NCBI GenBank assembly: GCA_045595685.1
Contig: JAZOAX010000166.1
Span: 1-44,788, forward strand
Reading direction: 5' to 3'
DNA: 44,788 nt
Source: Acutalibacteraceae bacterium
GTDB taxonomy: Bacteria; Bacillota; Clostridia; Oscillospirales; Acutalibacteraceae
Shown: positions 4,373 through 22,896 of the stretch, piece after piece
How positions within the stretch are numbered: the first letter of the stretch is position 1
Layout of the letters: each line of letters starts with the position of its first letter
Notes under the pieces: model-generated
What the model saw: the letters and a program-made list of their open reading frames with translations, nothing else
What the model was told of the DNA's origin: nothing
Databases searched by the model: none
Position numbers and translations under genes: made by a program

Positions 4373-5251
4373 TTGAAAGCAGATTTACATTGCCACACTA
4401 AACTTTCAGACGGCACAATGGGCATTGACGATATTCTCGTTCTTGCCAAAAACAGCGGTGTAACAACTCTTGCAATCACGGACCATGACTGCCTTGCAGG
4501 CGTTGTGAGAGCAGAACTTATCGGTCAGAGATACGGCGTAACCGTTATTCCTGCCGTTGAGTTTTCCGCAACTGATTACAAGAGAAATTCAAAAGTACAT
4601 ATTCTTTGCTATCTTCCCGACAAACCGGAAAGACTTGAAGGCCTTTGCAAGAGCAACTCCCTTCTCAGAAAAAGAGCAGGACAGATGATGGTGCTCAAAA
4701 CAGCAAAGAAATTCCCGGTTACTCCGGAATTTATCACAAAATGTTGTCAGGGCTCAACAAACATCTATAAGCAGCACATTATGCAGGCCCTTATGGAATG
4801 CGGCTACACAACCACAATTTTCGGTGACCTTTACAAAATGCTTTTCACAAAAGAATCAAGAATGAATGTTCTTATGGAAACAAAGTATCCCGAGCCCACC
4901 GAAATCATCAATGCAATTCACGAAGCAGGCGGTGTCGCAGTTCTTGCTCACCCCGGATTTTACGATAACTTTGAACTTTTTGAAGAACTTATTCCCGAAG
5001 GTCTTGACGGCGTTGAAGTATGGCATCCGGAAAACACTCCCGAGCAGCAGGAACACCTCATACAAATTGCAAAAAAACACGGCCTTGTTATGACAGGCGG
5101 CAGTGACTTCCACGGTGCATATAACGCTTATCCCATAAGACTCGGCGATTACGGCCCCGATGAAGAAAACCTTAACCGTCTTATGACATATAAAGCAAAA
5201 AAACGCAGAAAACAGAAGAAACTTGAAGCGGCAGCGGCGGCAGAAGGTTGA
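4373..5251 (+). CDS. PHP-domain phosphoesterase (TrpH/YciV-like), TTG start
   Basis: KADLHCHTKLSDG...ITDHD...LAHP...GGSDFHG metal-binding His/Asp motifs of the PHP family. RBS is AAGGGGATAAGGA. Confidence 0.8.
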   Translation: MKADLHCHTKLSDGTMGIDDILVLAKNSGVTTLAITDHDCLAGVVRAELIGQRYGVTVIPAVEFSATDYKRNSKVHILCYLPDKPERLEGLCKSNSLLRKRAGQMMVLKTAKKFPVTPEFITKCCQGSTNIYKQHIMQALMECGYTTTIFGDLYKMLFTKESRMNVLMETKYPEPTEIINAIHEAGGVAVLAHPGFYDNFELFEELIPEGLDGVEVWHPENTPEQQEHLIQIAKKHGLVMTGGSDFHGAYNAYPIRLGDYGPDEENLNRLMTYKAKKRRKQKKLEAAAAAEG

Positions 5252-5275
5252 TTCTGAATCCGAAAGGAGAATACG

Positions 5276-5860
5276 ATGAGCGAAAACGATGTTAAAATTT
5301 ATCACAGCAAAAGTGAACTGAACAAAAGCGGCAGTGACCTTTCTTCTGCTTTTGATGCAGTTATTGTTCACCGTACCAACGGAAATCTTGATAAAGCCAG
5401 AATTCTCGGCGAAAGCCTTGCAACAATAACACCCTCGGCAAACGGTGACGGAATAATCGTTGACCTGAAAGACCACCTTGCACCCAAATATTTTGCACCT
5501 GATATTCTTTATCAGATCAAGGTGCTTCTTGTGTTTGCCTGCGAAACCCTTCTGCAGATTGAAATTCCCGTATCAGTGGTGTCCACAACGGCAATTACTG
5601 CTATGCACAACAAAATCAAGGAACTTTCACCGGGCTTTTATGCAAACATTTCAAACGGAGCGGCATTTACTTTTTATTACCTTGCTGTTCAGAAAGGCGG
5701 AGACCTTTCCGAAAACATCGGTGAAGCCTTTGCAATGCTTTGCTCTGTAAAGAATAAGGAAGGCTTTGTAAATGCAGGCAAAACTGTGTGGAACATTGCC
5801 GTTGACCTTATTGAAAAAGAAATTGAAAAAGCAGATTTCAAGGTTATTATGACTGAATAA
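5276..5860 (+). CDS. Hypothetical protein (194 aa), no family recognised
   Basis: Long ORF with AAAGGAGA RBS, 24 nt after the PHP gene stop. Codon usage resembles its neighbours. Confidence 0.7.
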   Translation: MSENDVKIYHSKSELNKSGSDLSSAFDAVIVHRTNGNLDKARILGESLATITPSANGDGIIVDLKDHLAPKYFAPDILYQIKVLLVFACETLLQIEIPVSVVSTTAITAMHNKIKELSPGFYANISNGAAFTFYYLAVQKGGDLSENIGEAFAMLCSVKNKEGFVNAGKTVWNIAVDLIEKEIEKADFKVIMTE

Positions 5861-5896
5861 AAATAAAAAGAATTAACCCGGTAAAGTCCGGGAAAA

Positions 5897-5923
5897 GACG
5901 GACTGGGAACCTCAGTCCGTTTT
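5897..5923 (+). terminator. Intercistronic hairpin with a short T-tract (weak terminator or attenuator) directly before the DRTGG operon RBS
   Basis: ACGGACTG-GGAACCT-CAGTCCGT (8 bp, 9 with a G-T pair) then TTTG. It is preceded by a second GC hairpin CCCGG-TAAAGT-CCGGG (5877-5892). The GGAGGA RBS starts at 5932. Confidence 0.5.
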
Positions 5924-5944: not shown

Positions 5945-6295
5945 ATGAAAATCAGCGACATTCAGAAAATTCTTGAAGCAGAAGTTATCTGCAAGGCAGA
6001 TATGCTTGAAAAAGAGGTTAAGGCTGCCTGCGGCAGTGATATGATGAGTGATGTTCTTGCTTTTGTTAAAGAGCAGGCAGCACTTCTAACAGGTCTTGTT
6101 AATCCTCAGGTGGTCAGAACTGCCGAAATGATGGATATGCACTGCATAATTTTTGTAAGAGGAAAAAGACCTACCTTGGATATGATTGAAATGGCTGAAG
6201 ACAGAGATATGGTGATGCTCTGCACAGACCTTGAAATGTTCACAGCCTGCGGAAAACTTTATTCTGAAGGCTTGAGAGGAGGCAGCGGAAAATAA
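5945..6295 (+). CDS. DRTGG-domain protein A (116 aa)
   Basis: Start set at ATG 5945, 7 nt after GGAGGA. The sequence ...SDMMSDVLAF...ALLTGLVNPQVVRTAEMMDMHCIIFVRGKRP... is typical of small stand-alone DRTGG proteins. Confidence 0.75.
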   Translation: MKISDIQKILEAEVICKADMLEKEVKAACGSDMMSDVLAFVKEQAALLTGLVNPQVVRTAEMMDMHCIIFVRGKRPTLDMIEMAEDRDMVMLCTDLEMFTACGKLYSEGLRGGSGK

Positions 6296-6717
6296 TGGAC
6301 AGCATCAGACTGCATTATGTTGTACCCGGAGATGATTTCACAAGGGCAGGTGCTGCCTCAAGCGATGTTAAACGCACACTGAAAGAACTCGGAATTTCCC
6401 CGTCGGTTATAAGAAATGTTTCCATTGCCATGTATGAAGGTGAAATCAATATGGTAATTCACGCAGGCGGCGGAGATATCGATGTGGAAATTACCGAAAA
6501 TGAAATCATTATGACCCTTTCCGATCAGGGCCCCGGTATTGAAAATCTTGACCTTGCAATGAAGGAAGGTTTCTCCACTGCACCCGATAATATCCGTTGC
6601 CTCGGATTCGGTGCGGGTATGGGTCTTCCGAATATCAAAAAGTATACCGATGAATTTGCTATCGACACAAAAGTGGGTGTCGGCACAACTTTGCACCTGA
6701 AGGTATACATACAATAA
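6295..6717 (+). CDS. GHKL-type ATP-binding protein, RsbW/SpoIIAB-like (HATPase_c_2) putative serine kinase/anti-sigma-like (140 aa)
   Basis: N-box YEGEINMVIHA, G1 box DQGPGI, G2 box GFGAGMGL. Its ATG overlaps the upstream stop codon (TAATG). Confidence 0.8.
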   Translation: MDSIRLHYVVPGDDFTRAGAASSDVKRTLKELGISPSVIRNVSIAMYEGEINMVIHAGGGDIDVEITENEIIMTLSDQGPGIENLDLAMKEGFSTAPDNIRCLGFGAGMGLPNIKKYTDEFAIDTKVGVGTTLHLKVYIQ

Positions 6718-6735
6718 GTTAAAAAGGAGATAGTC

Positions 6736-8073
6736 ATGTCTATATTATTCCATTCGGTGCGTCTGGATGCAGACAAATGTCAGGGCTGTACCAATTGCAT
6801 CAAACGGTGTCCTACTCAGGCTATCAGAGTAAGAAATAAAAAAGCATACATAATTTCTGACCGTTGCATTGACTGCGGTGAGTGTATCCGAGTGTGTCCT
6901 CACCACGCAAAATATGCCATCAGTGAGCATTTCAACGAACTTCTGAAATATAAATACAGAATTGCACTTCCCGCGCCTGCCCTTTACGGACAGTTCAACA
7001 ACCTTGAAAATGTGGACTATGTTCTCACGGGCCTTAAAAAAATGGGCTTTGATGAAGTTGTTGAAGTTTCAAAGGGCGCAGAACTTCTCAGCAGTGCCAC
7101 AAGAATGATGATGGAATCGGGTGAACTAAGAAAGCCTGTTATTTCTTCAGCGTGTCCTGCTGCAGTGCGTCTTATAAGAACAAGATTCCCCAATCTTCTG
7201 CAGAATCTTCTGCCCACCTGCGCACCCATTGACATTGCGGCAATGATTGCAAGAAAAAATGCGGCAGAAAAAACGGGATACAAAAACGAAGAAATAGGCG
7301 TATTCTTCCTTTCTCCCTGCCCTGCGAAAAGAACTGCCATAATGAATCCTCTCTGTCACGAAAACTACGGTATCAACGGCGCAATTGCAATTAAAGATAT
7401 TTATCCCGTTCTTGTGCAGACAATGGATAAACTTCAGCCCGAAGAAATTGAAAACATAAACGATTCTGGTATTATCGGTGTTGGCTGGGCAAGTAGCGGC
7501 GGAGAAGCGGCAGGTATTCTTAAAGAAAGATATCTTGCTGCCGACGGTGTTGAAAATATCATCAATGTTCTTGAAGAACTTGAAGACGAAAAACTCAACG
7601 ACCTTGACTTTATTGAACTCAACTGCTGCACAGGCGGATGTGTGGGCGGTGTACTTACCGTTGAAAATCCTTATGTGGCAAAAGCAAGAATACAGAGACT
7701 TCGCAAGTTTATGCCTGTTTCCTGCAATTCACTTCCCGAGGACAGTGACCTGAGCGTTTTCAGTTGGACAAAAGAACTCACTCCGTCGCCTGCAATGAAA
7801 CTTGCAGACAATGTTATAAAAGCCATGAAGATGATGACGAGAATGAAAGAAATTGAAGCATCACTTCCGGGACTTGACTGCGGAATATGCGGTGCGCCTT
7901 CCTGCAGAGCCCTTGCAGAAGATATTGTGCGCGGCTATGCGGAAGAAAATGACTGCGTGCTTCATCACATTCAGGTTGGCGGAAACGGAAAGGGCGAAGA
8001 CTGGCTTCCCGCACCTTTCAGAGTAAAAGTAATGAATGAAGAAATAAACGAGGAAAAATCCGATGAATGTTAA
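6736..8073 (+). CDS. [FeFe]-hydrogenase-like Fe-S protein (445 aa): 2x[4Fe-4S] ferredoxin domain, Fe_hyd_lg_C-like domain and a C-terminal RnfB-N-like CxxCGxxxC domain; putative sensory type
   Basis: CQGCTNCIKRCP and CIDCGECIRVCP motifs. H-cluster motif equivalents are SSAC140P, SPC195PAK and NCC298TGGC302. The C-terminus carries C382GIC385GAPSC390...C407. Confidence 0.8.
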   Translation: MSILFHSVRLDADKCQGCTNCIKRCPTQAIRVRNKKAYIISDRCIDCGECIRVCPHHAKYAISEHFNELLKYKYRIALPAPALYGQFNNLENVDYVLTGLKKMGFDEVVEVSKGAELLSSATRMMMESGELRKPVISSACPAAVRLIRTRFPNLLQNLLPTCAPIDIAAMIARKNAAEKTGYKNEEIGVFFLSPCPAKRTAIMNPLCHENYGINGAIAIKDIYPVLVQTMDKLQPEEIENINDSGIIGVGWASSGGEAAGILKERYLAADGVENIINVLEELEDEKLNDLDFIELNCCTGGCVGGVLTVENPYVAKARIQRLRKFMPVSCNSLPEDSDLSVFSWTKELTPSPAMKLADNVIKAMKMMTRMKEIEASLPGLDCGICGAPSCRALAEDIVRGYAEENDCVLHHIQVGGNGKGEDWLPAPFRVKVMNEEINEEKSDEC

Positions 8074-8389
8074 ACAACTTGCAGAAAAACTGAATTTAGA
8101 AATTCTCTCACAAGGCAACCTTGAAGCAGAATGTACAGGCTGTTACAGCGGTGACCTGCTTTCATGGGTTATGTCCAAGGCTGAGGCAGGGGATATATGG
8201 CTCACGGTTATGGGTAACATCAATGCCGTTGCAGTGAGTGTTCTTTGCGACTGTGCCTGCATAATCCTCACAGAAAAAGCCGCCCTGGACGATGCGGCTA
8301 AAATGAAAGCCGAAATGCAGGGCGTTAATATTCTCACAAGCGAAAAGAATGCCTATGAACTCAGCGTGGCAATTTCAGAACTGATATGA
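8063..8389 (+). CDS. DRTGG-domain protein B (108 aa)
   Basis: GDLLSWVMSKA...WLTVMGNINAVAVSVLCDCACIILTE is paralogous in layout to 5945-6295. It overlaps the upstream gene by 11 nt. Confidence 0.75.
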   Translation: MNVKQLAEKLNLEILSQGNLEAECTGCYSGDLLSWVMSKAEAGDIWLTVMGNINAVAVSVLCDCACIILTEKAALDDAAKMKAEMQGVNILTSEKNAYELSVAISELI

Positions 8390-9105
8390 AATTATATTAC
8401 GATTTACATCTGCATTCCTGCCTTTCGCCTTGCGGTGACAATGAAATGACACCCTATAACCTTGTGAATATGGCAAAAATTTTCGGCTATGACATAATTG
8501 CCCTCACAGACCATAACAGTTGCCTTAACTGTGAAAGTGCAATGAAAATAGGCGAACAGATCGGAATAACCGTTGTGCCGGGTATGGAACTTTGCACTTC
8601 GGAAGAAATTCACTGTGTCTGCCTTTTTCCTTGCCTTGAGAATGCAAAGAAGTTCAGCGATTTTGTGAAAACCCTTATGCCTCCCGTAAAAAACAAAGAG
8701 CATATTTTCGGTGAGCAGCTTATAATGGACACAGAAGACGGAATTCTCGGAAAAGAAGAAATTCTTCTCACAACGGCAGCAAACATCAGCATTGACCATC
8801 TGCCCGATGTAATTGACAGTTACGGCGGAGTATGTTTCCCTGCCCACATTGACAGAAGTTCTTACAGCATTATTTCCGCCTTGGGTGACTTCAGTAAATA
8901 TCTGCGGGTCAACTGCTTTGAACTCACTCCCGATGCCGACGAAAAGGAGTACCTTACGAAATATGAAGGCACAAGGGACAAGATAATTCTCAGAAGTTCC
9001 GATGCCCATTATCTCACAAGTATGCGTGAACCTCAGTTTACGGTTAATCTTCCCGAAAATTCACCCGAGGCCCTTATCGGTTACCTGAAAGGAGAACTTC
9101 AATGA
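8386..9105 (+). CDS. PHP-domain phosphoesterase 2 (239 aa)
   Basis: DLHLHSCLSPCGD...ALTDHNS...PAHIDR...SDAH motifs. ATGA overlap with the upstream gene. Confidence 0.8.
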   Translation: MKLYYDLHLHSCLSPCGDNEMTPYNLVNMAKIFGYDIIALTDHNSCLNCESAMKIGEQIGITVVPGMELCTSEEIHCVCLFPCLENAKKFSDFVKTLMPPVKNKEHIFGEQLIMDTEDGILGKEEILLTTAANISIDHLPDVIDSYGGVCFPAHIDRSSYSIISALGDFSKYLRVNCFELTPDADEKEYLTKYEGTRDKIILRSSDAHYLTSMREPQFTVNLPENSPEALIGYLKGELQ

Positions 9106-9551
9106 CGGAAAAAGAAAAGGCCAGAGAACTGTTTCTGGAAGGATATAACTGTTCACAGTCTGTGTTCGTGGCTTTCAGCAGCCGCTTCGGTATTGACGAA
9201 AGCACTGCAAAAAAAATCAGTGCAGGTCTTGGCGGCGGACTCGGAAGACAAAGAGAGGTCTGCGGTGCAGTTTCTGCGGCAAGTATGGTGCTTGGAAGCA
9301 TTGTTGCCGCTCAGGAAGGTGCAGACCGGGAAAGCAAAAAGAAGAACTACGAACTTGTGCGGGAATTCTGCAGAAGGTTTCGGGAAAAACATCCGAGTAT
9401 TATCTGCCGTGAAATGCTTGGAAGCCTTGCAAAAAACAATACCGCCGTTCCCGATGAGAGAACAGCGGAGTATTATCGCAAACGACCATGTGTAAGAGTT
9501 GTTGAAGATGCGGCTGAAATACTTGCGCAGATGCTGAGTGAAAACGAATAA
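9102..9551 (+). CDS. C_GCAxxG_C_C family putative redox-active protein (149 aa)
   Basis: GYNCSQS...EVCGAVSAASMVLG...IICREML...RPCVRVV matches the family's spaced Cys pattern. ATGA overlap with PHP gene 2. Confidence 0.75.
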   Translation: MTEKEKARELFLEGYNCSQSVFVAFSSRFGIDESTAKKISAGLGGGLGRQREVCGAVSAASMVLGSIVAAQEGADRESKKKNYELVREFCRRFREKHPSIICREMLGSLAKNNTAVPDERTAEYYRKRPCVRVVEDAAEILAQMLSENE

Positions 9552-9555
9552 AGAA

Positions 9556-9593
9556 AGAACTGATGATTAAATAGTCATCAGTTCTGTTTTTTT
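9556..9593. terminator. Terminator closing the 5945-9551 operon (shared with the convergent gene)
   Basis: AGAACTGATGA...TCATCAGTTCT 11-bp stem followed by GTTTTTTT. Confidence 0.8.
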
Positions 9594-11882: not shown

Positions 11883-11911
11883 ATTATACAATATTTATCT
11901 TCGGTAATCAA
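11883..11911 (-). promoter_or_regulatory. Candidate sigma-A promoter for the MATE-DUF3737 operon
   Basis: Minus strand: TTGATT, 17 nt, TATAAT. The -35 element overlaps the stop of the Crp-family gene. Confidence 0.45.
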
Positions 11912-12582
11912 TAGTGAAAAAAGCCGGAAAGTTCAAAATTGTTTTTTCTGCAATTTATAATACCTTCCTTTTTCATTTTACCGATTTCGGCAGAAAGTCC
12001 GCTTCTGTCAACCTGAAGAAAATCTGCAAGTTCCTGACGGTCAAAGGGTATGGAAAACTTTGCTTTGCCGTTTTTCTTGGCTTCACTCATAAGGTAAGCC
12101 ATCAGTTTTTCCCTTGTGGTGCGTTTTGATGTAATCTGAGCCTTTTGCTGCAGAATAAGATTCTTTTCTGCAACGGTTTTCATCAGGTTAAATATAATTC
12201 TGCTGTGAAAACTGCACACATTACTGCAAGGCTCGGCAATGCGGTGGCGGTCAATGAAAAGTATCTCACTTTCTTTGACGGCAACGGCACAAACGGGTAT
12301 TTTTTGAACATCGGCACAGGCAAAAGTTTCTGCAAAAAGTTCCGACTCAGATGCAGTGCCGAGAATACTTCTGTTACCGTAAAAATCGTTCATTTCAATC
12401 TGAACTGCGCCTGAAAGCACAATGCAGATATACTTCGCTTCACTGCCTTCGGCAAGGACTGTATCTTTTTTGTTGAAATGCTCCACTTTTGTGCCAAGGC
12501 AACTGAGGGTGTGAAGAAGATTTTCTTCCTCTATGCCGTAAAACAGAGGACATTTTTTGAGAATTTCAGAATATTTTTTCAT
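11908..12582 (-). CDS. Crp/Fnr family transcriptional regulator (224 aa)
   Basis: An N-terminal cNMP-binding-like beta-roll is followed by a C-terminal HTH (RQELADFLQVDRSGLSAEIGKMKKEGII). No N-terminal FNR Cys cluster is seen. Confidence 0.8.
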   Translation of the reverse strand: MKKYSEILKKCPLFYGIEEENLLHTLSCLGTKVEHFNKKDTVLAEGSEAKYICIVLSGAVQIEMNDFYGNRSILGTASESELFAETFACADVQKIPVCAVAVKESEILFIDRHRIAEPCSNVCSFHSRIIFNLMKTVAEKNLILQQKAQITSKRTTREKLMAYLMSEAKKNGKAKFSIPFDRQELADFLQVDRSGLSAEIGKMKKEGIINCRKNNFELSGFFHY

Positions 12583-12670: not shown

Positions 12671-13375
12671 ATGATAAGAAAAATTATAAAAATAGATGAA
12701 GAAAAATGTAATGGCTGCGGTCTTTGTGCAGCAGCCTGCCACGAAGGCGCCATTGAAATGGTGAACGGCAAAGCAAAACTTACAAGGGAAGATTACTGCG
12801 ACGGTCTGGGAGACTGTCTTCCCGCTTGCCCCACCAACGCAATTTCCTTTGAAGAAAGAGAGGCGCCTGCCTATAACGAAGCGGCAGTTCTTGAAGCAAA
12901 GGCACAGAAGACGGAGAAGCCTGCCAAACTTCCCTGCGGCTGCCCCGGCACAAATTCAAAATTTATAAAAAGAGAAAGCAGCACCTGTGCAGTGCCCTCT
13001 GCGAACATTACAAGCAGACTCAGTCAGTGGCCCGTACAGATTAAACTTGTGCCCGTAAACGCATCTTATTTTGAAAACGCGAACCTGCTTGTTGCGGCAG
13101 ACTGCACCGCATTTGCCTACGGTAATTTCCACAACGATTTCATAAGAAATCACATCACCCTTATCGGTTGCCCGAAACTTGATGAAGGCGACTACGCAGA
13201 AAAACTCACACAGATAATCTGCAACAATAACATTAAAAGTGTTAAGGTTGTGCGTATGGAAGTGCCTTGCTGCGGCGGTATTGAAAATGCAGTTAAAAGA
13301 GCACTTATGAACAGCGGAAAATTCATTCCATGGCAGGTTGTAACAGTATCAACCGACGGCAGAATACTTGACTGA
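12671..13375 (+). CDS. 4Fe-4S dicluster domain protein with a Cys-rich C-terminal domain (234 aa)
   Basis: CNGCGLCAAACHEG and CDGLGDCLPACP motifs. The C-terminus has CTAFAYG...GCPKLD...VPCCGG. Confidence 0.75.
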   Translation: MIRKIIKIDEEKCNGCGLCAAACHEGAIEMVNGKAKLTREDYCDGLGDCLPACPTNAISFEEREAPAYNEAAVLEAKAQKTEKPAKLPCGCPGTNSKFIKRESSTCAVPSANITSRLSQWPVQIKLVPVNASYFENANLLVAADCTAFAYGNFHNDFIRNHITLIGCPKLDEGDYAEKLTQIICNNNIKSVKVVRMEVPCCGGIENAVKRALMNSGKFIPWQVVTVSTDGRILD

Positions 13376-14167: not shown

Positions 14168-14602
14168 TTACAGCACTTCTATTTCGTCGCCCTCAAACAC
14201 CTTGCCGCCTTTTACAACTTCAGCAAAGATGCCTTCTCTGGGCATAACGCACTGTCCCACAAGTTTTTTAATGGCGCAGCCGTCGTGACACTCTTTCCCT
14301 ATCTGTGAAATTCTGATTACACATTCGCCAACCTGAAGAAGTGTACCCACGGGAATAGTATAAAGTTCAATTCCCTCGGTTGTGATGTTTTCGGCAAACA
14401 CGCCGTGGCAAAGTCCGTCGGTGGGAAGACCCTTTGCCTTGTCAATGCTTTCTTTTGCAAGAAGGCTTACCTGTCTGTGCCATTTGCCTGCGTGGGCGTC
14501 GCCCTCAAAACCGAAATTTTCAATAAGTACACCGGGATTGATTTTAGTTTTCGGTGTACCTTTCTTTTCGCTTATGTTAATTGATATAACTTTACCTTTC
14601 AT
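14168..14602 (-). CDS. MOSC domain-containing protein (144 aa)
   Basis: ...FGFEGDAHAGKWHRQVSLL...VGTLLQVGECVIRISQIGKECH... resembles the small MOSC proteins of clostridial moa operons. Confidence 0.7.
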   Translation of the reverse strand: MKGKVISINISEKKGTPKTKINPGVLIENFGFEGDAHAGKWHRQVSLLAKESIDKAKGLPTDGLCHGVFAENITTEGIELYTIPVGTLLQVGECVIRISQIGKECHDGCAIKKLVGQCVMPREGIFAEVVKGGKVFEGDEIEVL

Positions 14603-14604
14603 AG

Positions 14605-15555
14605 TCAGCCTCCTATTTTGTTGAGCCCGTGAGATGCACCGTAACCGCAGGAAAATTTATGCTCCATAGGCTTTGAAAGAATGGCTTTTCTCACTTTTTC
14701 TTCAAGTAATTTTTCATCGTTGAGATAAGGTTTCAGGTCAATAACCTCGTCAGAGCCGAGGCAAACCTTGACCTTTCCGTCACAGAGAAGTCTTATGCGG
14801 TTGCATTCACTGCAGAATTTATCGCTGATGGGTGTTATGAAACCTATCCTGCCTTTGAAGGATTCGCCTTCGTAATATTTTGCCACACTTTTTTCAAAGG
14901 GAGTGCCTTTGGTGTCAACGGGTCTGAGAAAGGGGAATTTTTTCAGTATCTCATCGCTTTTTATCACAAGATTTTCGTTGTCGCCGTCATCGGAAAAGGG
15001 CATAAGTTCAATGAAACGGACATCGATTTTTCTGTTTTTTGCAATGTTTATAAGGCTTTCAGCGTCACCTTCGTTCTGCCCTCTTATAAGAACGGCATTG
15101 ATTCTCAGAGGGTGAAGACCGACTCTTTCACATTCGTCAATGCCCTCAAAAACCTTGTGCAGTCCGTCATATCCCGTTATGGATTTAAAACGTTCCCTGT
15201 CCACTGTGTCAAGGCTTATGTTAACTGCCGTAACACCTGCCATTTTAAGTTTTTCGGCGTACTGTTTAAGATTCATTCCGTTGGTGGTAACGGCAAGTTT
15301 TTTCACGCCGTCAATTCGGCTTATTCTTCGGGCAATGTCACAGATGTCTTTTCTTACCAAAGGCTCACCGCCCGTAAGACGCACCTTGTTTATGCCGCAC
15401 TGAACAAAGGCTCTCACAATCTTTTCAAACTCTTCAGGCTTCAGTTCAGTGTTATCTTTTTCATTCTGCGCACCGCAATAAGTGCAGTTGAGATTGCACC
15501 TTTTTGTGACGGAGACACGCAGATAGTTAATTTCTCTGCCGTAACTGTCAATCAT
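14605..15555 (-). CDS. moaA: GTP 3',8-cyclase MoaA (radical SAM)
   Basis: CNLNCTYC radical-SAM motif, GGEPL, and C-terminal CSECNRIRLLCDGKVKVC for the second cluster. Confidence 0.9.
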   Translation of the reverse strand: MIDSYGREINYLRVSVTKRCNLNCTYCGAQNEKDNTELKPEEFEKIVRAFVQCGINKVRLTGGEPLVRKDICDIARRISRIDGVKKLAVTTNGMNLKQYAEKLKMAGVTAVNISLDTVDRERFKSITGYDGLHKVFEGIDECERVGLHPLRINAVLIRGQNEGDAESLINIAKNRKIDVRFIELMPFSDDGDNENLVIKSDEILKKFPFLRPVDTKGTPFEKSVAKYYEGESFKGRIGFITPISDKFCSECNRIRLLCDGKVKVCLGSDEVIDLKPYLNDEKLLEEKVRKAILSKPMEHKFSCGYGASHGLNKIGG

Positions 15556-16018
15556 TTTTAAAATCGCTCTTTCCGCCTGTTTTTTCTAAAAGTTTAACTT
15601 CTCTTATTTCCATTTTTCTGTCTATTGCTTTGCACATATCGTAAACCGTAAGTGCCGCAACGGAAACTGCCGTAAGGGCTTCCATTTCTATGCCCGTTTT
15701 ATATGAGCACTTTGCAACAGAATAGATATAAAGTTCGTCTTCACTGTTATTGTCAAAAGTGATTTCAACACTGTCTATGGGAATATTATGGCAAAGGGGA
15801 ACGAGTTCCCAGGTGCGTTTTGCCGCCATGATTCCCGCAATTCTTGCCGCTGCAAGTCCGTCCCCTTTTTTGAGGTCGGAAGAAAGAAGTTTTTGGAGTG
15901 TTTCTGTTTCCATTTTCACTTTGGCAAAGGCTGAGGCTGTTCTTCGGGTGACATTTTTTTCTCCCACATCAACCATTACCGCTTCACCGTTTTTGTTAAG
16001 ATGAGTAAAATCAGCCAA
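15548..16018 (-). CDS. moaC: Cyclic pyranopterin monophosphate synthase MoaC (156 aa from a TTG start)
   Basis: FTHLN..GEAVMVDVGEK..T.R.A and a conserved core. Start moved to TTG 16018, 8 nt after GGGAGG. The ORF-track ATG at 16063 would overlap moeA by 53 nt. Confidence 0.8.
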   Translation of the reverse strand: MADFTHLNKNGEAVMVDVGEKNVTRRTASAFAKVKMETETLQKLLSSDLKKGDGLAAARIAGIMAAKRTWELVPLCHNIPIDSVEITFDNNSEDELYIYSVAKCSYKTGIEMEALTAVSVAALTVYDMCKAIDRKMEIREVKLLEKTGGKSDFKND

Positions 16019-17888
16019 CTGTATAGCCTCCCATCTGTGAAAGTCTGTTTCTGAATTCTTCACTTTTCAGCATTCTCAGAAAACTCTGCACCTTGTCTTC
16101 TTCAAAAACCTTTTCGTCAATAAGAACATCATATTCTTCAATGCAGATTTCTATAAAATCAAGGTCATACATTTTTGCCGCCGAATAAATTCCAAGACCG
16201 CAGTCGGCATTACCTGCGGCAATAAGTGCTGCAACGCCTGTGTGGGTGAATTCTTCGTTGCGGTAACCGTCAAGGGCTGTTTTGTCTATACCGTATTTTC
16301 CCAGAAGGTAATCGCAGAGGATTCTTGTGCCTGAGCCTGCCTGTCGGTTGACATATCTGCCTTTGACTATGTCTTTGAAAGATTCAATTTTCAGGGGGTT
16401 GCCTTTCTGCACCATAAGGCCCTGAACTCTGCCAACACCTTTAACGAGTTTCACATTGCCGTCGGGGAAGTATTTTTTAACATAACTTTCGTTATATCTG
16501 CCCGTTTCTGTGTCCAGCAGATGTATGCAGCCAAGGTGTGCCTGACCGTTTTTTATGGCGGTTATTGCACCCATACTGCCCACGTGGCTGGAAGTAATGC
16601 TGAAAGATGAATCCTCTTTTTTCAGCATATCGGAAAGTTCGTCAATAAGGGGGTCATGGCTTCCCGTTACAATAAGGGAAGAATTAATCTGCCTGAGAGG
16701 TCTGAGAAGCCTTATTTCAACTTCCTGCCCTGCGTCAAAGCCCTCAGTGTTCTGGGGTACAACAAGTATGCCGTCTGCCTTGGTGAAACTTGTGATTACG
16801 CCTGCACCTCTGCTCAGGGGTACTGCGGTGAGGGTGTCTCCCGACTTGCCGAGAGTAACCCTGACATATTCCTGATATTTAAGAGATGAGACCACTCTTT
16901 TGCCGAGAACCGCCTTTACTGTATTACGGTTTTCTTCATTTTCCTTATACCACATTGATACAATCTTTTTCACAATCTCATCCATTATCACTATTGCCGA
17001 AACGGGATAACCGGGCAGTCCCACAACGGGCACATTTCCCACGGCACCTAAAACTGCAGGCTTGCCGGGTTTTACGGCAATGCCGTGAAAAACCACCTTG
17101 CCGAGAGAGGATATAATTGTGCTTGTGTAATCGTCTCTGCCTGCGGAAGACCCTGCAAGAACAAGAAGAATGTCACATTCCTCTGTGCCTTTTTTCACTG
17201 CCGCTTCAAGCAGATCTTTTTTGTCTTTGACAATATCGTAAATTCTGGTTTCTGCACCCCACTGATGAAGCATAGAGGAAAAAACTGCCGAATTGAATTC
17301 GATTATTTCACCTTTTTCGGGGTTCTTTTTCGGTGATACGATTTCGTCACCTGTGGGAATAATTCCCACAAGAGGCTTTTTTATAACTTCAACCTCGAGC
17401 ACTCCTCCTGCAAGAAAAGCACCGCAGAGAGACGGCGTTATCTTTGTGTATGAGGGCGCAATCATATCGCCCATACATATATCTTCGCCCACCTGACGAA
17501 CATTCTGCCAGGGGTGATTGGCTGAAAGGATACTCACGTTTCCGTTTTCGAGTTCCGTTACATCTTCAACCATTATAACGGAGTCTGCGCCTTCGGGAAT
17601 CGGGTCACCCGTATCTACTACGGTGTACTGCTCCGGTGAAAGTATAACGGAGGAGGCTTCACTTGCTCCGTAGGTGTCTGTTGCCTTTACGGCAATACCG
17701 TCCATAGCGCTGGCGTTATAGTGGGGAGAACATATTGAAGCATAAACTGCTTTGGCAAGGATTCTTCCCGAACTTTCAAAGGATGGTATTTTTTCTATGC
17801 AGTGGGAAAATGAACTTTCTTTGAGGAAAGAAAAGTATTCCGTCAGCACTTTATTCAAAGGTGCGTTATCAAGATAGTTGTGTCGCAT
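16011..17888 (-). CDS. moeA: MoeA-type molybdopterin/tungstopterin metal-insertion protein fused to a C-terminal periplasmic-binding-protein-like (oxyanion-binding) domain (625 aa)
   Basis: MoeA N, MoCF and C domains (ASAMDGIAV, GIIPTGDE, LAGSSAGRDDY, HGIAVKPGKP). An extra domain of roughly 210 aa (VTGSHDP...NRQAGSGTR) resembles PBP-like domains. Confidence 0.8.
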   Translation of the reverse strand: MRHNYLDNAPLNKVLTEYFSFLKESSFSHCIEKIPSFESSGRILAKAVYASICSPHYNASAMDGIAVKATDTYGASEASSVILSPEQYTVVDTGDPIPEGADSVIMVEDVTELENGNVSILSANHPWQNVRQVGEDICMGDMIAPSYTKITPSLCGAFLAGGVLEVEVIKKPLVGIIPTGDEIVSPKKNPEKGEIIEFNSAVFSSMLHQWGAETRIYDIVKDKKDLLEAAVKKGTEECDILLVLAGSSAGRDDYTSTIISSLGKVVFHGIAVKPGKPAVLGAVGNVPVVGLPGYPVSAIVIMDEIVKKIVSMWYKENEENRNTVKAVLGKRVVSSLKYQEYVRVTLGKSGDTLTAVPLSRGAGVITSFTKADGILVVPQNTEGFDAGQEVEIRLLRPLRQINSSLIVTGSHDPLIDELSDMLKKEDSSFSITSSHVGSMGAITAIKNGQAHLGCIHLLDTETGRYNESYVKKYFPDGNVKLVKGVGRVQGLMVQKGNPLKIESFKDIVKGRYVNRQAGSGTRILCDYLLGKYGIDKTALDGYRNEEFTHTGVAALIAAGNADCGLGIYSAAKMYDLDFIEICIEEYDVLIDEKVFEEDKVQSFLRMLKSEEFRNRLSQMGGYTVG

Positions 17889-17899
17889 ATTTTCACCTC

Positions 17900-19102
17900 T
17901 TAAAACAGATGTACTTTCACTTTTTCGCCGCTTCTGAGCCCTTCACGGTTACGGTCAATGATGATGTAACCGTCGCTTTGTGAAAGAACAGATATTACAC
18001 CGCTTTTGCTGAAAATGGGCTCTGCGCCTTTCGGGGTAAGTTTCACGCATATAATTTCTTCTCTGCCGTGGTTGGAAGATATGTTCTGCGTAATTACAGA
18101 TTCCGTATATTTTTCTTTACTCTTGCGGCAAAGCAGAGAATCGGCAAGGGGTACAATAAAACGAAGGCAGACAAAATAACTTGCAAGGGGATGGCCGGGA
18201 AGACCGAATACAGCCTTATTGTCAATTTTGCCTATAATGGTGGGTTTGCCCGGCTTTAATGCAATGCCGTGAACATAAACTTCGCCAAGGGAAGAAATGA
18301 TGTCCGCCGTCATATCTCTTGCTCCTGCAGAGGAGCCGCCTGAAATAAGTATTATATCGTTTTCTTTCACTGCCTTCACAACGGCGCTGTGTATGTCTTC
18401 ATATATGTCTTTAACAATGCCGTATTCTTTTGTGATGCAGCCGTGTTCTGTCATTAAAGATGAGAGAATGTGACTGTTTATATCTCTGATTTTTCCGAAA
18501 GTTATTTCACTGTCTACGGGTACTATTTCGTCACCCGTTGAGATAATACCGACACGCAGTTTTTCTCTTACGGGGATTTCGGTAATTCCCAGTGAAGCAA
18601 GAATACCTGTTTCACGGGATGTGATTTCGGTGCCTTTACTAAGAACGGTCTGCCCTTCGGTTATATCGTCACCTTTTTTTGTAACATTTTCAAAGGGGCT
18701 CACTGTTTTGTATACAAGGCACAGAGAATCAAAACTGTTGTCGGTGTGCTCCACCATTACCACACTGTCTGAGCCCTGAGGAAGCATACCGCCTGTGGAA
18801 ATTTTAATGCACTGACCCTCTGCTATTTTCTGAGTTGCCTCTTCACCCATAAGAATTTCACCGATAATTTCAAGTTGTGCAGGTATGCTTTCGCTGCAAC
18901 CGTAGGTGTCGGAGGCTTTGACTGCATAGCCGTCAACTGTGGAACGGTTAAAAGCAGGAATATTTTCTGAAGAAAGAATATCTTGAGAAACAACTCTGCC
19001 CAAAGAGTGATAAAGGCTTACTTTTTCCGTTTCTGAATCACTGTGATTAAATTTTTCTTCGATTATCTGAAGCGCCTCTTGGGCTGAAACTACTTTAAGC
19101 AC
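17900..19102 (-). CDS. moeA: Molybdopterin molybdo/tungsto-transferase MoeA (400 aa)
   Basis: RSTVDGYAV, IISTGDE, ISGGSSAGARDM and HGIALKPGKP motifs. Confidence 0.85.
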   Translation of the reverse strand: MLKVVSAQEALQIIEEKFNHSDSETEKVSLYHSLGRVVSQDILSSENIPAFNRSTVDGYAVKASDTYGCSESIPAQLEIIGEILMGEEATQKIAEGQCIKISTGGMLPQGSDSVVMVEHTDNSFDSLCLVYKTVSPFENVTKKGDDITEGQTVLSKGTEITSRETGILASLGITEIPVREKLRVGIISTGDEIVPVDSEITFGKIRDINSHILSSLMTEHGCITKEYGIVKDIYEDIHSAVVKAVKENDIILISGGSSAGARDMTADIISSLGEVYVHGIALKPGKPTIIGKIDNKAVFGLPGHPLASYFVCLRFIVPLADSLLCRKSKEKYTESVITQNISSNHGREEIICVKLTPKGAEPIFSKSGVISVLSQSDGYIIIDRNREGLRSGEKVKVHLF

Positions 19103-19113
19103 TTTGCCACCTC

Positions 19114-19785
19114 TTATTTTTCAAAATCCCAGAAATCAATGAACTTTTTGCTCCACAGACTTTTGGGTGAAGACAGAAGTTCTTCGGGTGTGCCTTCTTC
19201 GGCAATTTCACCTTTATGAAGAATCACAATTCTGTCGGCAAGTCTTCTTGCCTGACCCGGTGAATGAGTTGTCATAACAATTCCGCAACCTGTTTTTTTC
19301 TTATACTCTCTGATGGCGTTTTCAATAATTTCCGTACCCTCAATATCGGCAGCGCTTGAGGGCTCGTCAAGAAAGAGAAAATCGCCCTTGTTGATAAGAA
19401 CCCTGCCGAGAGCCAGCCGCTGACATTCACCGCCTGAAAGACGTGAAGCGTTTTTGTCGGCTAAATCTGTCAGAGAAAGAAGTGAGATTATATCTTCTGC
19501 TGCCTTTTCTTTGCCGATTTTATCTTTGGCAGAAAACAGAAGATTTTTTCTCACGGTTTTTCTGAAAGGTATACTTTCCTGAGGCAGATAGTATAATGTT
19601 CCGTCAACAGAAAATTCGCCCGAAGTTTTTTCCGCAATGCCCGAAAGAATTTTCAGAAGGGTGCTTTTACCGCTTCCGTTGGGACCTGCAATAACGAGAG
19701 TTTCGCCTTTTTTTATTGTGAGAGATTCAATGTTCAGAACTGTTCTCTCACCGTATTTTTTTGTAAGATTCTTAATTTCAATCAT
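19114..19785 (-). CDS. tupC: ABC transporter ATP-binding protein (tungstate TupC-like)
   Basis: Walker A GPNGSGKST, signature LSGGECQR, Walker B FLFLDEP. In an operon with the TupA/TupB-like genes. Confidence 0.75.
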   Translation of the reverse strand: MIEIKNLTKKYGERTVLNIESLTIKKGETLVIAGPNGSGKSTLLKILSGIAEKTSGEFSVDGTLYYLPQESIPFRKTVRKNLLFSAKDKIGKEKAAEDIISLLSLTDLADKNASRLSGGECQRLALGRVLINKGDFLFLDEPSSAADIEGTEIIENAIREYKKKTGCGIVMTTHSPGQARRLADRIVILHKGEIAEEGTPEELLSSPKSLWSKKFIDFWDFEK

Positions 19786-20465
19786 TGTTTATCCTCCCTT
19801 GTCAAAAATGATGCGAGGATATTTACTATAAGAGAAATTATAAGAAGAACTATACCGAGACTCAGGGCAAAGGTGAAGTTGCCCTTGTTTGTTTCAAGCA
19901 TAATTGCTGTTGTCATAACCCTTGTTTTCCATTGGATGTTGCCGCCTACAAGGCTTACAGCACCAACCTCTGCAATTGACCTGCCAAAAGCAGTGAGAAC
20001 AACACTCATAAGAGCGAATCTGTTTTCAGCGAGAAGCAGAAGTGCGGTTTTTCCTGAGGAAAAAGCAAGTCCTTTTGCCGTTTCCGTCAGCGCCCTGACA
20101 TTGACGGAGATAATGGACTCAGTAAGGTTTATCACAACGGGAATTATGAGCATACACTGTGCAATTACCATAACTTCAACGGTGAAAAGGAGCCCCAGAG
20201 AGCCGAAGATGCCGTATTTTGTGAAAAGCATATAGACAATCAGGCCTGCCACCACAGGAGGCAAGCCCATAAACGTACCGGTTAATTTTTTGATTGTCCT
20301 TTTGCCTTTGAAGTTGCTTTTTGCCAGAATCACGCCAAGGGGCATACCGACAAGGCATGAAATCAGTGTGCTGAAAAAGGACATACGGAGTGTTACACCG
20401 ATAATCTGTAACAACTCCTTGTCCATAGTCAGAAGCATTTCAAAAGCTTCAATAATTTTTTCCAA
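19782..20465 (-). CDS. tupB: ABC transporter permease (tungstate TupB-like)
   Basis: Membrane protein with about 5-6 TM helices. ATGA-type overlap with the ATPase gene. Confidence 0.75.
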   Translation of the reverse strand: MEKIIEAFEMLLTMDKELLQIIGVTLRMSFFSTLISCLVGMPLGVILAKSNFKGKRTIKKLTGTFMGLPPVVAGLIVYMLFTKYGIFGSLGLLFTVEVMVIAQCMLIIPVVINLTESIISVNVRALTETAKGLAFSSGKTALLLLAENRFALMSVVLTAFGRSIAEVGAVSLVGGNIQWKTRVMTTAIMLETNKGNFTFALSLGIVLLIISLIVNILASFLTREDKQ

Positions 20466-20468
20466 AAC

Positions 20469-21311
20469 TTATTCTTCGATAAGATAGAAGAGTGCTTCGC
20501 CGTACTGCTCTTTGCCGTATTCAGCAATAAGTGCAGATGCTTCGTCGCCTGTCATCCATTCAATAAGAGCCTTGGCACCTTCGGTGTTAACACCTTCAAG
20601 TTTTTCGGGGTTACATTCAATAAGAGAATATGTATTCTTCATATCTTCGCCTTCAGCAAGAATGATTTCAAGGTTGAGGGACTGCTTGTTTGAAAGGAAT
20701 GTAGCCTTGTCTGTAAGGCAGTATGCAGCCTTTTCACTTGCCATTGTAAGACATGCGCCCATACCCTGACCTGCACTGATGTACCAGGAAGCAGTCTCGG
20801 CATCGGGAACGTTTTCACCCCAGATTTTGAGTTCTGCCTTGTGTGTACCGCTTTCGTCACCGCGTGAAACGAAGGGTGCTTCTGCATCGGCAATTTTACC
20901 GAATGCCACAGCAGCGCTTTCACTGTCTTTGATTCCTGCAGGGTCTGCTTCGGGACCTGCAACTACAAAGTAGTTATACATAAAGGGGATTCTTTCAACG
21001 CCGTAGCCTTCAGAAATGAATTCTTCTTCTGATGCTTTTGCGTGAACGAGGATAAGGTCTGCGTTTCCGTCTTTTGCTTTCTGGATAGCGGCACCTGTAC
21101 CTGCTGACTGAACTTCAACGGTGTAACCTGTTGCTTTTTCAAAAGCGGGAAGAAGGTAGGGAAGAAGTCCTGAGTCGTTTACAGATGTGGTGGTTGACAT
21201 ACGGATAACGGGATTTGCGGGAGCATTACCCGGTGTTGCTTCTCCGCCGCCGCAGGCTGAAAGAGCGAAGAGCATAAGTGCTGCAAGTAATACTGCAAGA
21301 AGTTTTTTCAT
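20469..21311 (-). CDS. tupA: Tungstate-binding lipoprotein TupA-like (ABC substrate-binding protein)
   Basis: Lipobox LSAC. IRMSTTTSVNDSGLLPYLLPAFEKATGYTV...GTGAAI...LILVHA closely resembles the TupA TTTS signature region. Confidence 0.75.
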   Translation of the reverse strand: MKKLLAVLLAALMLFALSACGGGEATPGNAPANPVIRMSTTTSVNDSGLLPYLLPAFEKATGYTVEVQSAGTGAAIQKAKDGNADLILVHAKASEEEFISEGYGVERIPFMYNYFVVAGPEADPAGIKDSESAAVAFGKIADAEAPFVSRGDESGTHKAELKIWGENVPDAETASWYISAGQGMGACLTMASEKAAYCLTDKATFLSNKQSLNLEIILAEGEDMKNTYSLIECNPEKLEGVNTEGAKALIEWMTGDEASALIAEYGKEQYGEALFYLIEE

Positions 21312-21334
21312 AATTCATTCTCCTTTTCAATCAC

Positions 21335-21496
21335 GGAAGGTATAAAAGTTTCCCTTTGTACCCTTTGACCGGTGCCTGTGTTTTTTCTCCGTTTTGCAGG
21401 CAGTGTTTTTTCGGTCACGCACGGCTTTTCGTGCATAAATGTTTAGAAAATGCCGCGTCGGAATATGAATTAAAGCGGCAAAGCCGCTGACTTCCC
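21335..21496 (-). ncRNA. Structured 5' leader of the tup-moe-moa operon; candidate Moco/tungsten-cofactor riboswitch
   Basis: About 160 nt closed by GGAAG...CTTCC just 5' of the RBS. Internal hairpins on the minus strand are AGCGGC-TTT-GCCGCT, GCACG-AAAAGC-CGTGC, and TGACCG...CGGTCA enclosing GCCTG...CAGGC. GCCGC/GCGGC is an alternative pairing. The consensus match has not been verified. Confidence 0.35.
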
Positions 21497-21616
21497 ATGG
21501 ATGCATATAATTTTAATAAATATTTATAAAAAACAGTTAAATTTCTTGTAAATTTTGTATCTTTATGATATTATATATCAATAAAGAAAATATTTCAAGT
21601 GGGGGAGTGGTAAAAA

Positions 21617-22108
21617 GTGAATTTCGCAGTGCTGTGTGTCAGTGACAGATGCTCTCAGGGTCTTTGCGAAGATAAAAGCGGACCTCTTATTAAAGAAATG
21701 CTCACTTCCCTTGGAAAAACCAAGGAATATATAATTGTTCCCGATGACCTCAAAGAAATTGAAAAAGCCCTCATTTATCTTTGTGACGATGTTTGTGCCG
21801 ATGTGGTGTTCACAACGGGCGGCACGGGCTTTGCACCCAGAGATATTACCCCCGAAGCCACAAAGGCGGTTATTGAAAAAGAAGCCCCCGGCATTGCAGA
21901 GGGAATCAGAATGAAAAGCATGGAAATTACACCCAAGGCCATGCTTTCAAGGGCAGTATCGGGCATAAGAAAAAACTCTCTTATTATAAATCTGCCGGGA
22001 AGTCCCAAGGCCGTGAAGGAGTCACTGGAATTTGTGCTTCCCGTTCTGCCTCACGCAGTGGAAGTTTTAAGCGGTGATACCCTTAACTGCGGCGGCAACT
22101 ACAAGTGA
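21617..22108 (+). CDS. mog: MogA/MoaB family molybdopterin adenylyltransferase (GTG start)
   Basis: VLCVSDRCSQGLCEDKSGPLI...FTTGGTGFAPRDITPEAT...INLPGSP motifs. RBS GGGGGAG lies 9 nt upstream. Confidence 0.85.
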   Translation: MNFAVLCVSDRCSQGLCEDKSGPLIKEMLTSLGKTKEYIIVPDDLKEIEKALIYLCDDVCADVVFTTGGTGFAPRDITPEATKAVIEKEAPGIAEGIRMKSMEITPKAMLSRAVSGIRKNSLIINLPGSPKAVKESLEFVLPVLPHAVEVLSGDTLNCGGNYK

Positions 22109-22799: not shown

Positions 22800-22859
22800 C
22801 AATTTATGAGTTAAACAACTAACTGTAATTATTTGAACAAATCACTCGAGAAAGGAGAC

Positions 22860-22884
22860 ATAACTGAATTTGAGCTTCAGTTAT
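22860..22884 (+). promoter_or_regulatory. Perfect 9-bp hairpin between the only strong SD (22851-22858) and the AOR start
   Basis: ATAACTGAA-TTTGAGC-TTCAGTTAT. The 3' arm contains the first two nucleotides of the ATG (22883) of an 8-codon uORF that overlaps the AOR ATG at 22897. Confidence 0.4.
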
Positions 22885-22896
22885 GCGTGAAGAAAA

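Follow-up and report, generated by a model that had tools for sequence, protein, structure and literature searches.

A putative sensory [FeFe]-hydrogenase of Group D and four conserved companion genes as a candidate H2/redox-sensing module of gut Oscillospirales

Six consecutive open reading frames (ORFs) of contig JAZOAX010000166.1 (assembly GCA_045595685.1), from a gut Acutalibacteraceae bacterium, appear to encode a signalling module built around a putative H2 sensor of Group D. The window that was analyzed is the entire contig of 44,788 nucleotides (nt), and the six genes (g1 to g6, Table 1) lie between its positions 5,945 and 9,551. At their centre is g3, which encodes the [FeFe]-hydrogenase-like protein HydS. 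It is accompanied by two small proteins with a DRTGG domain (g1 or DRTGG-up, and g4 or DRTGG-dn), an ATPase resembling SpoIIAB (g2), and a PHP-family phosphoesterase (g5), followed by a C_GCAxxG_C_C protein (g6). With a probability of roughly 0.6, we read the region as specifying a hetero-oligomeric sensor of H2 or redox state that would consist of HydS and four partners. The domain assignments of all six genes, proposed in a first-pass annotation made from the sequence alone, held in searches with hidden Markov models (HMMs), with g4 falling marginally under the Pfam cut-off for DRTGG and being clear in its orthologues.

The strongest result was obtained from natural fusions with HydS. The 150 best representatives of the family were surveyed with Pfam and with our own HMMs, which revealed ten sequences that were over-long by 70 to 160 residues. 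All of these (10/10) turned out to be fusions mirroring the gene order of the module. Specifically, a g2-type ATPase was attached to the N-terminus of HydS in one fusion (P0157), a g1-type DRTGG-up protein to the N-terminus in two (P0159 and P0197), and a g4-type DRTGG-dn protein to the C-terminus in seven. One of the HydS::DRTGG-dn fusions, which replaces the separate g4 gene at its locus, was recovered with identical sequence from an NCBI genome and from a JGI metagenome; since it recurs in two independent samples, it is not a sequencing artefact. No fusion between the PHP protein and HydS was seen among the over-long representatives. These fusions argue for a complex of HydS with the ATPase, DRTGG-up, and DRTGG-dn, and they make g1, g2, and g4 the candidates for the interaction partners being sought for the Group D enzyme TamHydS (PMC13104023).

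The genomic context of HydS was analyzed through a census of one genome per species, seeded by a 15-sequence HydS alignment and comprising the 80 best loci, in which neighbours were called by running one HMM per neighbour family on all ORFs. All 80 loci belonged to Oscillospirales (Acutalibacteraceae, Ruminococcaceae, and Oscillospiraceae), mostly metagenome-assembled genomes from ruminant or human gut, with HydS identities of 53-86%. The order DRTGG-up, ATPase, HydS, DRTGG-dn, PHP was complete in 75 of the 78 assessable loci, and the PHP gene adjoined the others in 75 of 78. The core junctions were overlapping or very short, with medians of -4, +28, -4, and -2.5 nt across the 78 loci. The same order and such tight junctions in so many loci indicate that the layout is not due to chance, and that the five genes form a selected unit. 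Breadth beyond Oscillospirales was covered by five single look-ups and the literature: the five distant Group D loci (33-39% HydS identity) retained the core, with PHP absent in one. The Group D loci in which PHP is missing include L013, L018, and L086. At L092, the locus of fusion P0159, the order was PHP, a histidine-kinase-type ATPase, the DRTGG-up::HydS fusion, and hydC, a rearrangement which shows that module order is not fixed in every lineage.

The first-pass annotation had counted six genes in the module. The conserved unit comprises five, with g6 as an accessory, because the C_GCAxxG_C_C gene was found in only 9 of the 80 species, all of them in the clade of the window itself (HydS at least 77% identical), and because inserted ORFs part it from PHP in loci L003 and L011. 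Directly upstream of the module, at 4373-5860, the window carries a second PHP protein of 292 amino acids (aa), similar to pAp phosphatase, RNase AM, or cyclic-phosphate dihydrolase, together with a 194-aa protein that had no relatives in Pfam, NCBIfam, or the PDB. Both co-occur with the C_GCAxxG_C_C gene in every clade locus that reaches that far upstream (locus L005 ends at a contig edge) and in no census locus outside the clade.

The assignment of g3 to Group D is based on its domains, its invariant cluster cysteines, the hallmarks published for the group, and an identity of about 47% to TamHydS. In Pfam, g3 matched Fe_hyd_lg_C with 108.8 bits and the FeS motif PF04060 with 48 bits, and two Fer4 matches over residues 8-58 make up its N-terminal 2x[4Fe-4S] domain. 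The H-domain motifs SSAC140P, SPC195PAK, and ELNC298CTGGC302VGG provide the H-cluster ligands C140, C195, C298, and C302, which were invariant among 58 diverse relatives, and the C-terminal motif C382x2C385x4C390x16C407 corresponds to Cx2Cx4Cx16C. Among the eight cysteines of the N-terminal clusters, seven (C15, C21, C25, C44, C47, C50, and C54) were invariant in the same 58-sequence alignment and the eighth, C18, in the 15-sequence alignment. Altogether, 19 of the 20 cluster cysteines in the former alignment and C18 in the latter were invariant down to 30% identity. The position of the proton-relay Cys299 is occupied by Ala (SSACP) and that of Met353 by Ser (SPCPAK). No PAS domain was present among the Pfam and NCBIfam matches of g3, which ends 38 residues past the last cluster cysteine. 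The published definition of Group D (M2e) comprises two [4Fe-4S] motifs at the N-terminus, the four cysteines of the H-cluster, Cx2Cx4Cx16C at the C-terminus, absence of a PAS domain, loss of Cys299, and replacement of Met353 by Ser or Thr (PMC8163306). As judged from its sequence, g3 is therefore clearly a putative sensory [FeFe]-hydrogenase of Group D with every published hallmark present, in line with the first reading of the window.

In a tblastn comparison with TamHydS, residues 3-274 of g3 were 48% identical (E = 2e-90) and the C-terminal motif 70%; the TamHydS coding sequence came from the supplement of PMC13104023, and frameshifts introduced by optical character recognition of that text cause coverage to be underestimated. 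A sequence search of the PDB with g3 returned no Group D structure. The family itself is very large. Clustered at 90% identity, it comprised at least 8000 scored clusters, and clustering at 50% gave 494 representatives at E <= 1e-30. TamHydS has high affinity for H2, low turnover, and an H2-induced change in secondary structure (PMC8163306, PMC13104023), and it catalyses the reversible interconversion of H+ and H2 (PMC8163306). The literature also states that H2 does not reduce its C-terminal cluster. The identification of its interaction partners was still pending in 2026 and was called critical (PMC13104023), which bears out the earlier statement that signalling chemistry and targets are not established. 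In our literature search, likewise, no paper mentioned DRTGG proteins in connection with a hydrogenase, and none described the partner genes or signalling by Group D enzymes.

The protein g2 was identified as an ATPase of the RsbW/SpoIIAB type, as had been proposed. It matched HATPase_c (37.8 bits) and HATPase_c_2 (34.9 bits) in Pfam, and its N (E..N), G1 (DQGPGI), and G2 (GFGAGMGLPN) boxes are intact and at least 95% conserved in 66 orthologues. Its best relatives in the PDB were SpoIIAB structures (1TIL, 1L0O, and 1TH8, E ~3e-6). The match to the spIIAB family TIGR01925 (E = 1.5e-13, 50.8 bits) was far under the cut-off of 135 bits, and that to the RsbW family reached 23.5 bits against a cut-off of 145. 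Conservation of these boxes and of the PHP metal motifs suggests that both g2 and g5 look active.

Both small proteins carry a DRTGG domain. In g1 the Pfam score was 28.8 bits (cut-off 25.2), and residues ~29-75 are nearly invariant. In g4 the score was 23.9 bits, slightly under the same cut-off, along with a weak Hpr_kinase_N match; its orthologues and a family HMM, which found it conserved in 61 loci, clearly make it a DRTGG protein. The two had been annotated as paralogues, of which the shared domain stands and close paralogy is rejected: they are 23% identical (E = 0.003) and fall into two distinct orthologous groups, each with a fixed position. The AlphaFold2 (AF2) model of g1 matched the DRTGG structure 2IOJ, the DRTGG domain of CBS-pyrophosphatase, the N-domain of HPrK/P, and the N-domains of Mur ligases; no STAS or SpoIIAA structure occurred among the 50 listed matches, nor did Pfam report STAS. 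The most conserved stretch of g1, residues 29-47 (CGSDMMSDVLAFVKEQA), was nearly invariant in 57 species and was modelled with a predicted local distance difference test score (pLDDT) below 50, as would be expected if this segment took on order only upon meeting a partner. Ser/Thr positions are conserved in GSDMMSDVL and LLTG of g1 and in GDLLSWVM and WLTVMG of g4.

The PHP protein g5 (Pfam PHP, 34 bits) retains its metal-ligand motifs, most positions of which were at least 95% conserved in 73 orthologues and which were invariant in a 40-sequence alignment. Its AF2 model (pLDDT 87.7) had as nearest folds in Foldseek, at E <= 1e-3, endonuclease Q (EndoQ), RNase AM, and pAp phosphatases, followed by TM0559, PsfC, and the PHP domains of Pol III/PolC. 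The alignment to EndoQ had a TM score of 0.69 at 18% identity, and a TMt of 0.43 against the ~400-residue EndoQ chains. EndoQ consists of a PHP core, a Zn-finger, and C-terminal helical domains; an identity of g5 with EndoQ (COG1379) was discarded, as 239 aa leave no room for the additional domains. NCBIfam gave weak matches to nucleoside bisphosphate phosphatase and RNase AM, and an orthologue is named 'PHP family Zn ribbon phosphoesterase' in JGI. Protein phosphatases of the CpsB/YwqE type were absent from the Foldseek matches at this threshold, and NCBIfam gave no CpsB-type match. The ranking of folds in the model does not prove what the substrate is. At residues 8-18, g5 also contains an invariant Cys pair, Cys12 and Cys16, beside the first metal-binding HxH motif (H-x-H-S-C-L-S-P-C-G-D, HSCLSPCG), which the upstream PHP paralogue does not have (DLHCHTKLSDG). 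The pair is possibly a redox switch or an extra metal site.

The relationship of the module to the bifurcating hydrogenase was assessed in the same census. In the hydCBA block, as annotated with Pfam in Acutalibacter intestini, hydC is followed by the genes for an ATPase of the histidine-kinase type and for a 126-aa protein, and then by hydB and hydA. This block adjoins the module in 39 of 61 assessable species, downstream in 26 and divergently upstream in 13, and it is not adjacent in the other 22, all of which offered at least 3 kb on both sides (16 of them the full 10 kb); 19 further loci at contig edges were undecidable in this respect. The unlinked loci occupy at least six separate branches of the HydS tree and are stable within branches, and cluster ligands and enzyme motifs are conserved in family-wide alignments that include them. 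Isolate types represent both arrangements, Harryflintia acetispora being unlinked and Acutalibacter intestini linked. The module is thus usually, not obligatorily, beside the bifurcating hydrogenase. In thermophiles, Group D examples have been reported a few genes upstream of trimeric bifurcating hydABC (PMC3561251, PMC8163306), which matches the linked loci of the census.

Pfam annotation of the rest of the window, to which our statements on hydABC and hydEFG apply, yielded no NuoE-, NuoF-, or HydA-type gene and no hydEFG. This supports the earlier view that a catalytic or bifurcating hydrogenase is missing from these 45 kb. The earlier label of orphan module holds in so far as no hydABC lies within the window, but it does not mark an exceptional case given the 22 unlinked species. 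The extra ATPase of the hydCBA operon is a protein of 181-191 aa with a histidine-kinase-type CA domain and no HisKA or sensor domain (13327-14343 in L068, and in 27-29 other loci), and the ~126-aa gene between hydC and hydB is ferredoxin-like and matched nothing in Pfam. Both extra genes are absent from the window. That ATPase and g2 were considered as paralogues and rejected as such, as they share no pairwise similarity and the former is a histidine-kinase CA domain.

Our preferred reading of the module would work as follows. HydS would bind H2 and slowly turn it over at the H-cluster without a fast proton relay, as described for TamHydS, and its redox or conformational state would be read by docked proteins. 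The ATPase and DRTGG-up may dock at the N-terminal ferredoxin end and DRTGG-dn at the C-terminal [4Fe-4S] end, sites which we infer from the fusions and from translational coupling. Binding of ATP by the ATPase, or phosphoryl transfer, could then convert the state of HydS into an output, and PHP might either reset that output or be an effector on a nucleotide-type substrate. The target would most likely be the electron-bifurcating HydABC or fermentative redox balance; in this organism HydABC would be encoded elsewhere and the module would act in trans.

Several points weigh against this reading. Signalling by Group D enzymes is so far without experimental demonstration, and across the census loci no DNA-binding, sigma-factor, or second-messenger output gene is conserved beside the module. 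The fusions prove functional coupling and not the geometry proposed above. The AF2 model of g1 is of moderate quality (pLDDT 73.8) and poorest in the most conserved stretch, and the DRTGG fold as modelled gives no hint of a phospho-acceptor function. Moreover, the presence of hydABC and hydEFG was assessable only as far as the contig extends.

An alternative put forward in the first-pass annotation is a partner-switching circuit, in which g2 phosphorylates Ser/Thr residues of one or both DRTGG proteins, PHP reverses this, and the DRTGG state releases or sequesters a regulator. On the one hand, g2 is nearest to SpoIIAB/RsbW and has intact ATP-binding boxes, both DRTGG groups have conserved Ser/Thr positions, and Group C hydrogenase loci include a Ser phosphatase homologue, with a Ser/Thr kinase proposed as receiver (PMC5707799, PMC11837493). 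On the other hand, the defining substrate of partner switching is absent, because the g1 model matches no STAS or SpoIIAA structure among those listed; its fold resembles HPrK-N and Mur-N domains, so that a role of the DRTGG proteins as phospho-substrates is not supported. Nor does g5 fit the part of opposing protein phosphatase that had been assigned to PHP, as its closest structures are nucleic-acid and nucleotide phosphoesterases and CpsB/YwqE are not among them. In addition, g2 scores far under the equivalog cut-offs (50.8 vs 135 bits for spIIAB), neither a sigma factor nor any other target for sequestration is conserved in the vicinity, and PHP is missing from the three loci named above. 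No test run here supports the scheme of kinase, phospho-DRTGG, and PHP phosphatase, which we consider unlikely, and a nucleotide- or nucleic-acid-directed role of PHP appears at least as likely. Such a role could make PHP the effector itself, i.e., an H2-gated phosphoesterase under the control of HydS, the ATPase, and the DRTGG proteins that cleaves a signalling nucleotide (for example pAp or a linear or cyclic dinucleotide) or a specific RNA or DNA, in which case a transcription factor within the module would not be needed. The folds closest to g5, its weak NCBIfam matches, and the JGI name of its orthologue all point in that direction, as do the position of PHP as last gene of the conserved core and the lack of a conserved output regulator nearby. 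Against it stand a likeness that is confined to the fold level (14-19% identity), the length of g5 compared with EndoQ chains, the lack of any PHP-HydS fusion, and the absence of PHP from a few Group D loci, and we hold this version to be clearly improbable.

Finally, the module might not be a sensor at all. HydS could be a low-rate catalytic or electron-transfer enzyme, or the module could serve as an ATP-dependent factor for assembly, activation, or protection of HydABC. TamHydS does interconvert H+ and H2 (PMC8163306), hydCBA is the neighbour in 39 of the 61 assessable species, and hydCBA operons carry a further GHKL ATPase. This explanation is very improbable in our view, since the 22 species without adjacent hydCBA, on at least six branches, still carry the module with its catalytic residues complete, and since the enzyme has no proton relay and a low turnover (PMC8163306). 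In the PDB searches, solved HydABC was matched through its HydA and HydB chains only. To our knowledge, the solved HydABC complexes do not contain these small module proteins. The boldest form of the sensor reading, that all five proteins constitute a new gas-sensing machine in which H2 at the H-cluster gates an ATP switch and the output is cleavage of a signalling nucleotide or RNA instead of transcription-factor control, seems quite unlikely to us. If true, such a machine would act genome-wide, hence the survival of the module unlinked from hydABC on many branches.

The six-gene layout, the overlaps, the gap, and the terminator described in the first-pass annotation were reproduced exactly. 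Neighbouring genes overlap by 1 nt (g1/g2), 11 nt (g3/g4), and 4 nt (g4/g5 and g5/g6), and 18 nt separate g2 from g3. The first gene starts with an ATG that is preceded at a distance of 8 nt by GGAGG. A promoter match further upstream (Table 1) is possibly that of the module. The second of the two leader hairpins (5895-5923) has 13 bp and is followed by UUUUG; the pair could terminate transcription of the 194-aa gene upstream or act as an attenuator in front of g1. A riboswitch in this leader was considered and rejected, as an Rfam search of the hairpin region gave no family match. The terminator hairpin behind g6 has a predicted free energy of -17.9 kcal/mol (z = -6.25), and none of 200 shuffled sequences was equally stable.

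Table 1. Genes and signals of the HydS module in the 44,788-nt window
Feature	Position	Strand	Basis or details
Sigma-70-like promoter match, TTGAAA-16-TATTAT	5823..5850	+	10/12 consensus matches; inside 3' end of upstream gene
Two leader/intergenic hairpins	5877..5923	+	Free energy -27.9 kcal/mol, z = -4.3
g1, DRTGG-up, upstream small subunit, 116 aa	5945..6295	+	Pfam DRTGG, AF2 model
g2, SpoIIAB/RsbW-type GHKL ATPase, 140 aa	6295..6717	+	Pfam, NCBIfam, PDB relatives
g3, HydS, putative sensory [FeFe]-hydrogenase of Group D (M2e), 445 aa	6736..8073	+	Pfam, motifs, TamHydS similarity
g4, DRTGG-dn, downstream small subunit, 108 aa	8063..8389	+	Pfam, orthologues; 11-nt overlap with g3
g5, PHP-family metal phosphoesterase, 239 aa	8386..9105	+	Pfam PHP 34 bits
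g6, C_GCAxxG_C_C protein, 149 aa, accessory	9102..9551	+	PF09719 119.3 bits (curated cut-off 27); TIGR01909 84.2 bits (curated cut-off 47.4)
Intrinsic terminator, 13-bp stem + U7	9556..9593	+	Hairpin 9556-9585; bidirectional; between convergent genes

Elsewhere in the window, Pfam annotation revealed two DNA-binding regulators, a Crp/Fnr protein (11908-12582, 2.4 kb downstream of the module) and NrdR (39251-39706), which corrects the earlier claim that DNA-binding proteins are missing from these 45 kb. The companion claim for sigma factors stood, as none was found in the window with Pfam and none was conserved among the 80 related loci. The Crp/Fnr gene, on the reverse strand, forms a divergent pair with a gene for a 234-aa protein with a 2x[4Fe-4S] ferredoxin domain (12671-13375, forward strand). 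This pair recurred only in the same-species contig L001 and was without synteny in other species of the clade, so that Crp/Fnr is unsupported as the output of the module. Further downstream lies a molybdopterin/tungsten cofactor cluster (14168-24831) with genes for MOSC, MoaA, MoaC, two MoeA proteins (one fused to a PBP-like domain), an ATP-binding cassette transporter of the tungstate/molybdate type, a MogA-like protein, and ThiF/MoeB. Adjoining it, at about 13 kb from the sensor module, is a further redox enzyme linked to ferredoxin, an aldehyde:ferredoxin oxidoreductase (22897-24831). Two large ORFs, at 32533-35034 on the reverse strand (833 aa) and at 178-1239 on the forward strand (353 aa), had no Pfam match at E <= 0.01.

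Among described systems, g3 is closest to TamHydS-type proteins such as Cthe_0335, TTE0887, Csac_1857, Cphy_3798, and TamHydS itself, with which it shares the 2x[4Fe-4S] domain, the H-domain, the C-terminal Cx2Cx4Cx16C motif, the lack of PAS, the loss of C299, and Ser in place of M353. The described loci lie upstream of hydABC, whereas no hydABC is present in the window and the operon ends with the C_GCAxxG_C_C gene. The host of the window is a mesophilic gut member of Oscillospirales (Acutalibacteraceae-like) rather than a thermophile, and the AraC regulator reported beside TamHydS has no counterpart here. Group C (M2f) hydrogenases, i.e., HydS of Thermotoga maritima and Ruminococcus albus and HfsB of Thermoanaerobacterium, resemble g3 in their N-terminal clusters, relay-less H-domain, and C-terminal [4Fe-4S] motif, and their loci likewise include phospho-signalling enzymes. 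There is genetic evidence for a regulatory role of Group C hfsB (PMC5707799). Group C differs by a C-terminal PAS domain, which g3 does not have, and by its companions: in place of two DRTGG proteins, a SpoIIAB-like ATPase, and PHP, it is paired with HfsC, a homologue of Ser phosphatases, and with a Ser/Thr kinase (PMC5707799, PMC11837493). A reading of HfsC as an RsbW-like kinase and of HfsD as a PP2C phosphatase was dropped, because it is contradicted by PMC11837493, which describes HfsC as homologous to a Ser phosphatase and HfsD as a HydA2-like hydrogenase.

The pairs SpoIIAB-SpoIIAA and RsbW-RsbV are similar to the module in combining a stand-alone GHKL protein of ~140 aa with small partners and a phosphoesterase. 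Unlike them, the module has no STAS partner, PP2C phosphatase, or sigma factor, its small partners are DRTGG proteins, and g2 scores below their cut-offs. The HoxBC-HoxJ-HoxA system of Cupriavidus necator shares the logic by which a slow, high-affinity hydrogenase complexed with a GHKL-type kinase reports H2 availability, according to the summary in PMC5707799. That system, whose output is known, is built on an [NiFe] enzyme of an unrelated hydrogenase class, a response regulator, and a histidine kinase with a PAS domain.

Within its known group, the hydrogenase of this locus is nothing out of the ordinary, its companions are the usual ones, and the unlinked form with C_GCAxxG_C_C is a clade variant common in public genomes. 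The locus itself would not surprise a specialist, and its value lies in turning the partner question into a specific proposal. The nominations of DRTGG-up, the ATPase, and DRTGG-dn, which rest on the 80-species census and on the natural fusions, make the open question of HydS signalling testable. Because the module often operates away from hydABC, the unlinked copies are well suited for finding its real output. Group D enzymes are very abundant in the anaerobic Clostridia of gut and rumen, where they are thought to sense H2, a key currency of fermentation and methanogenesis.

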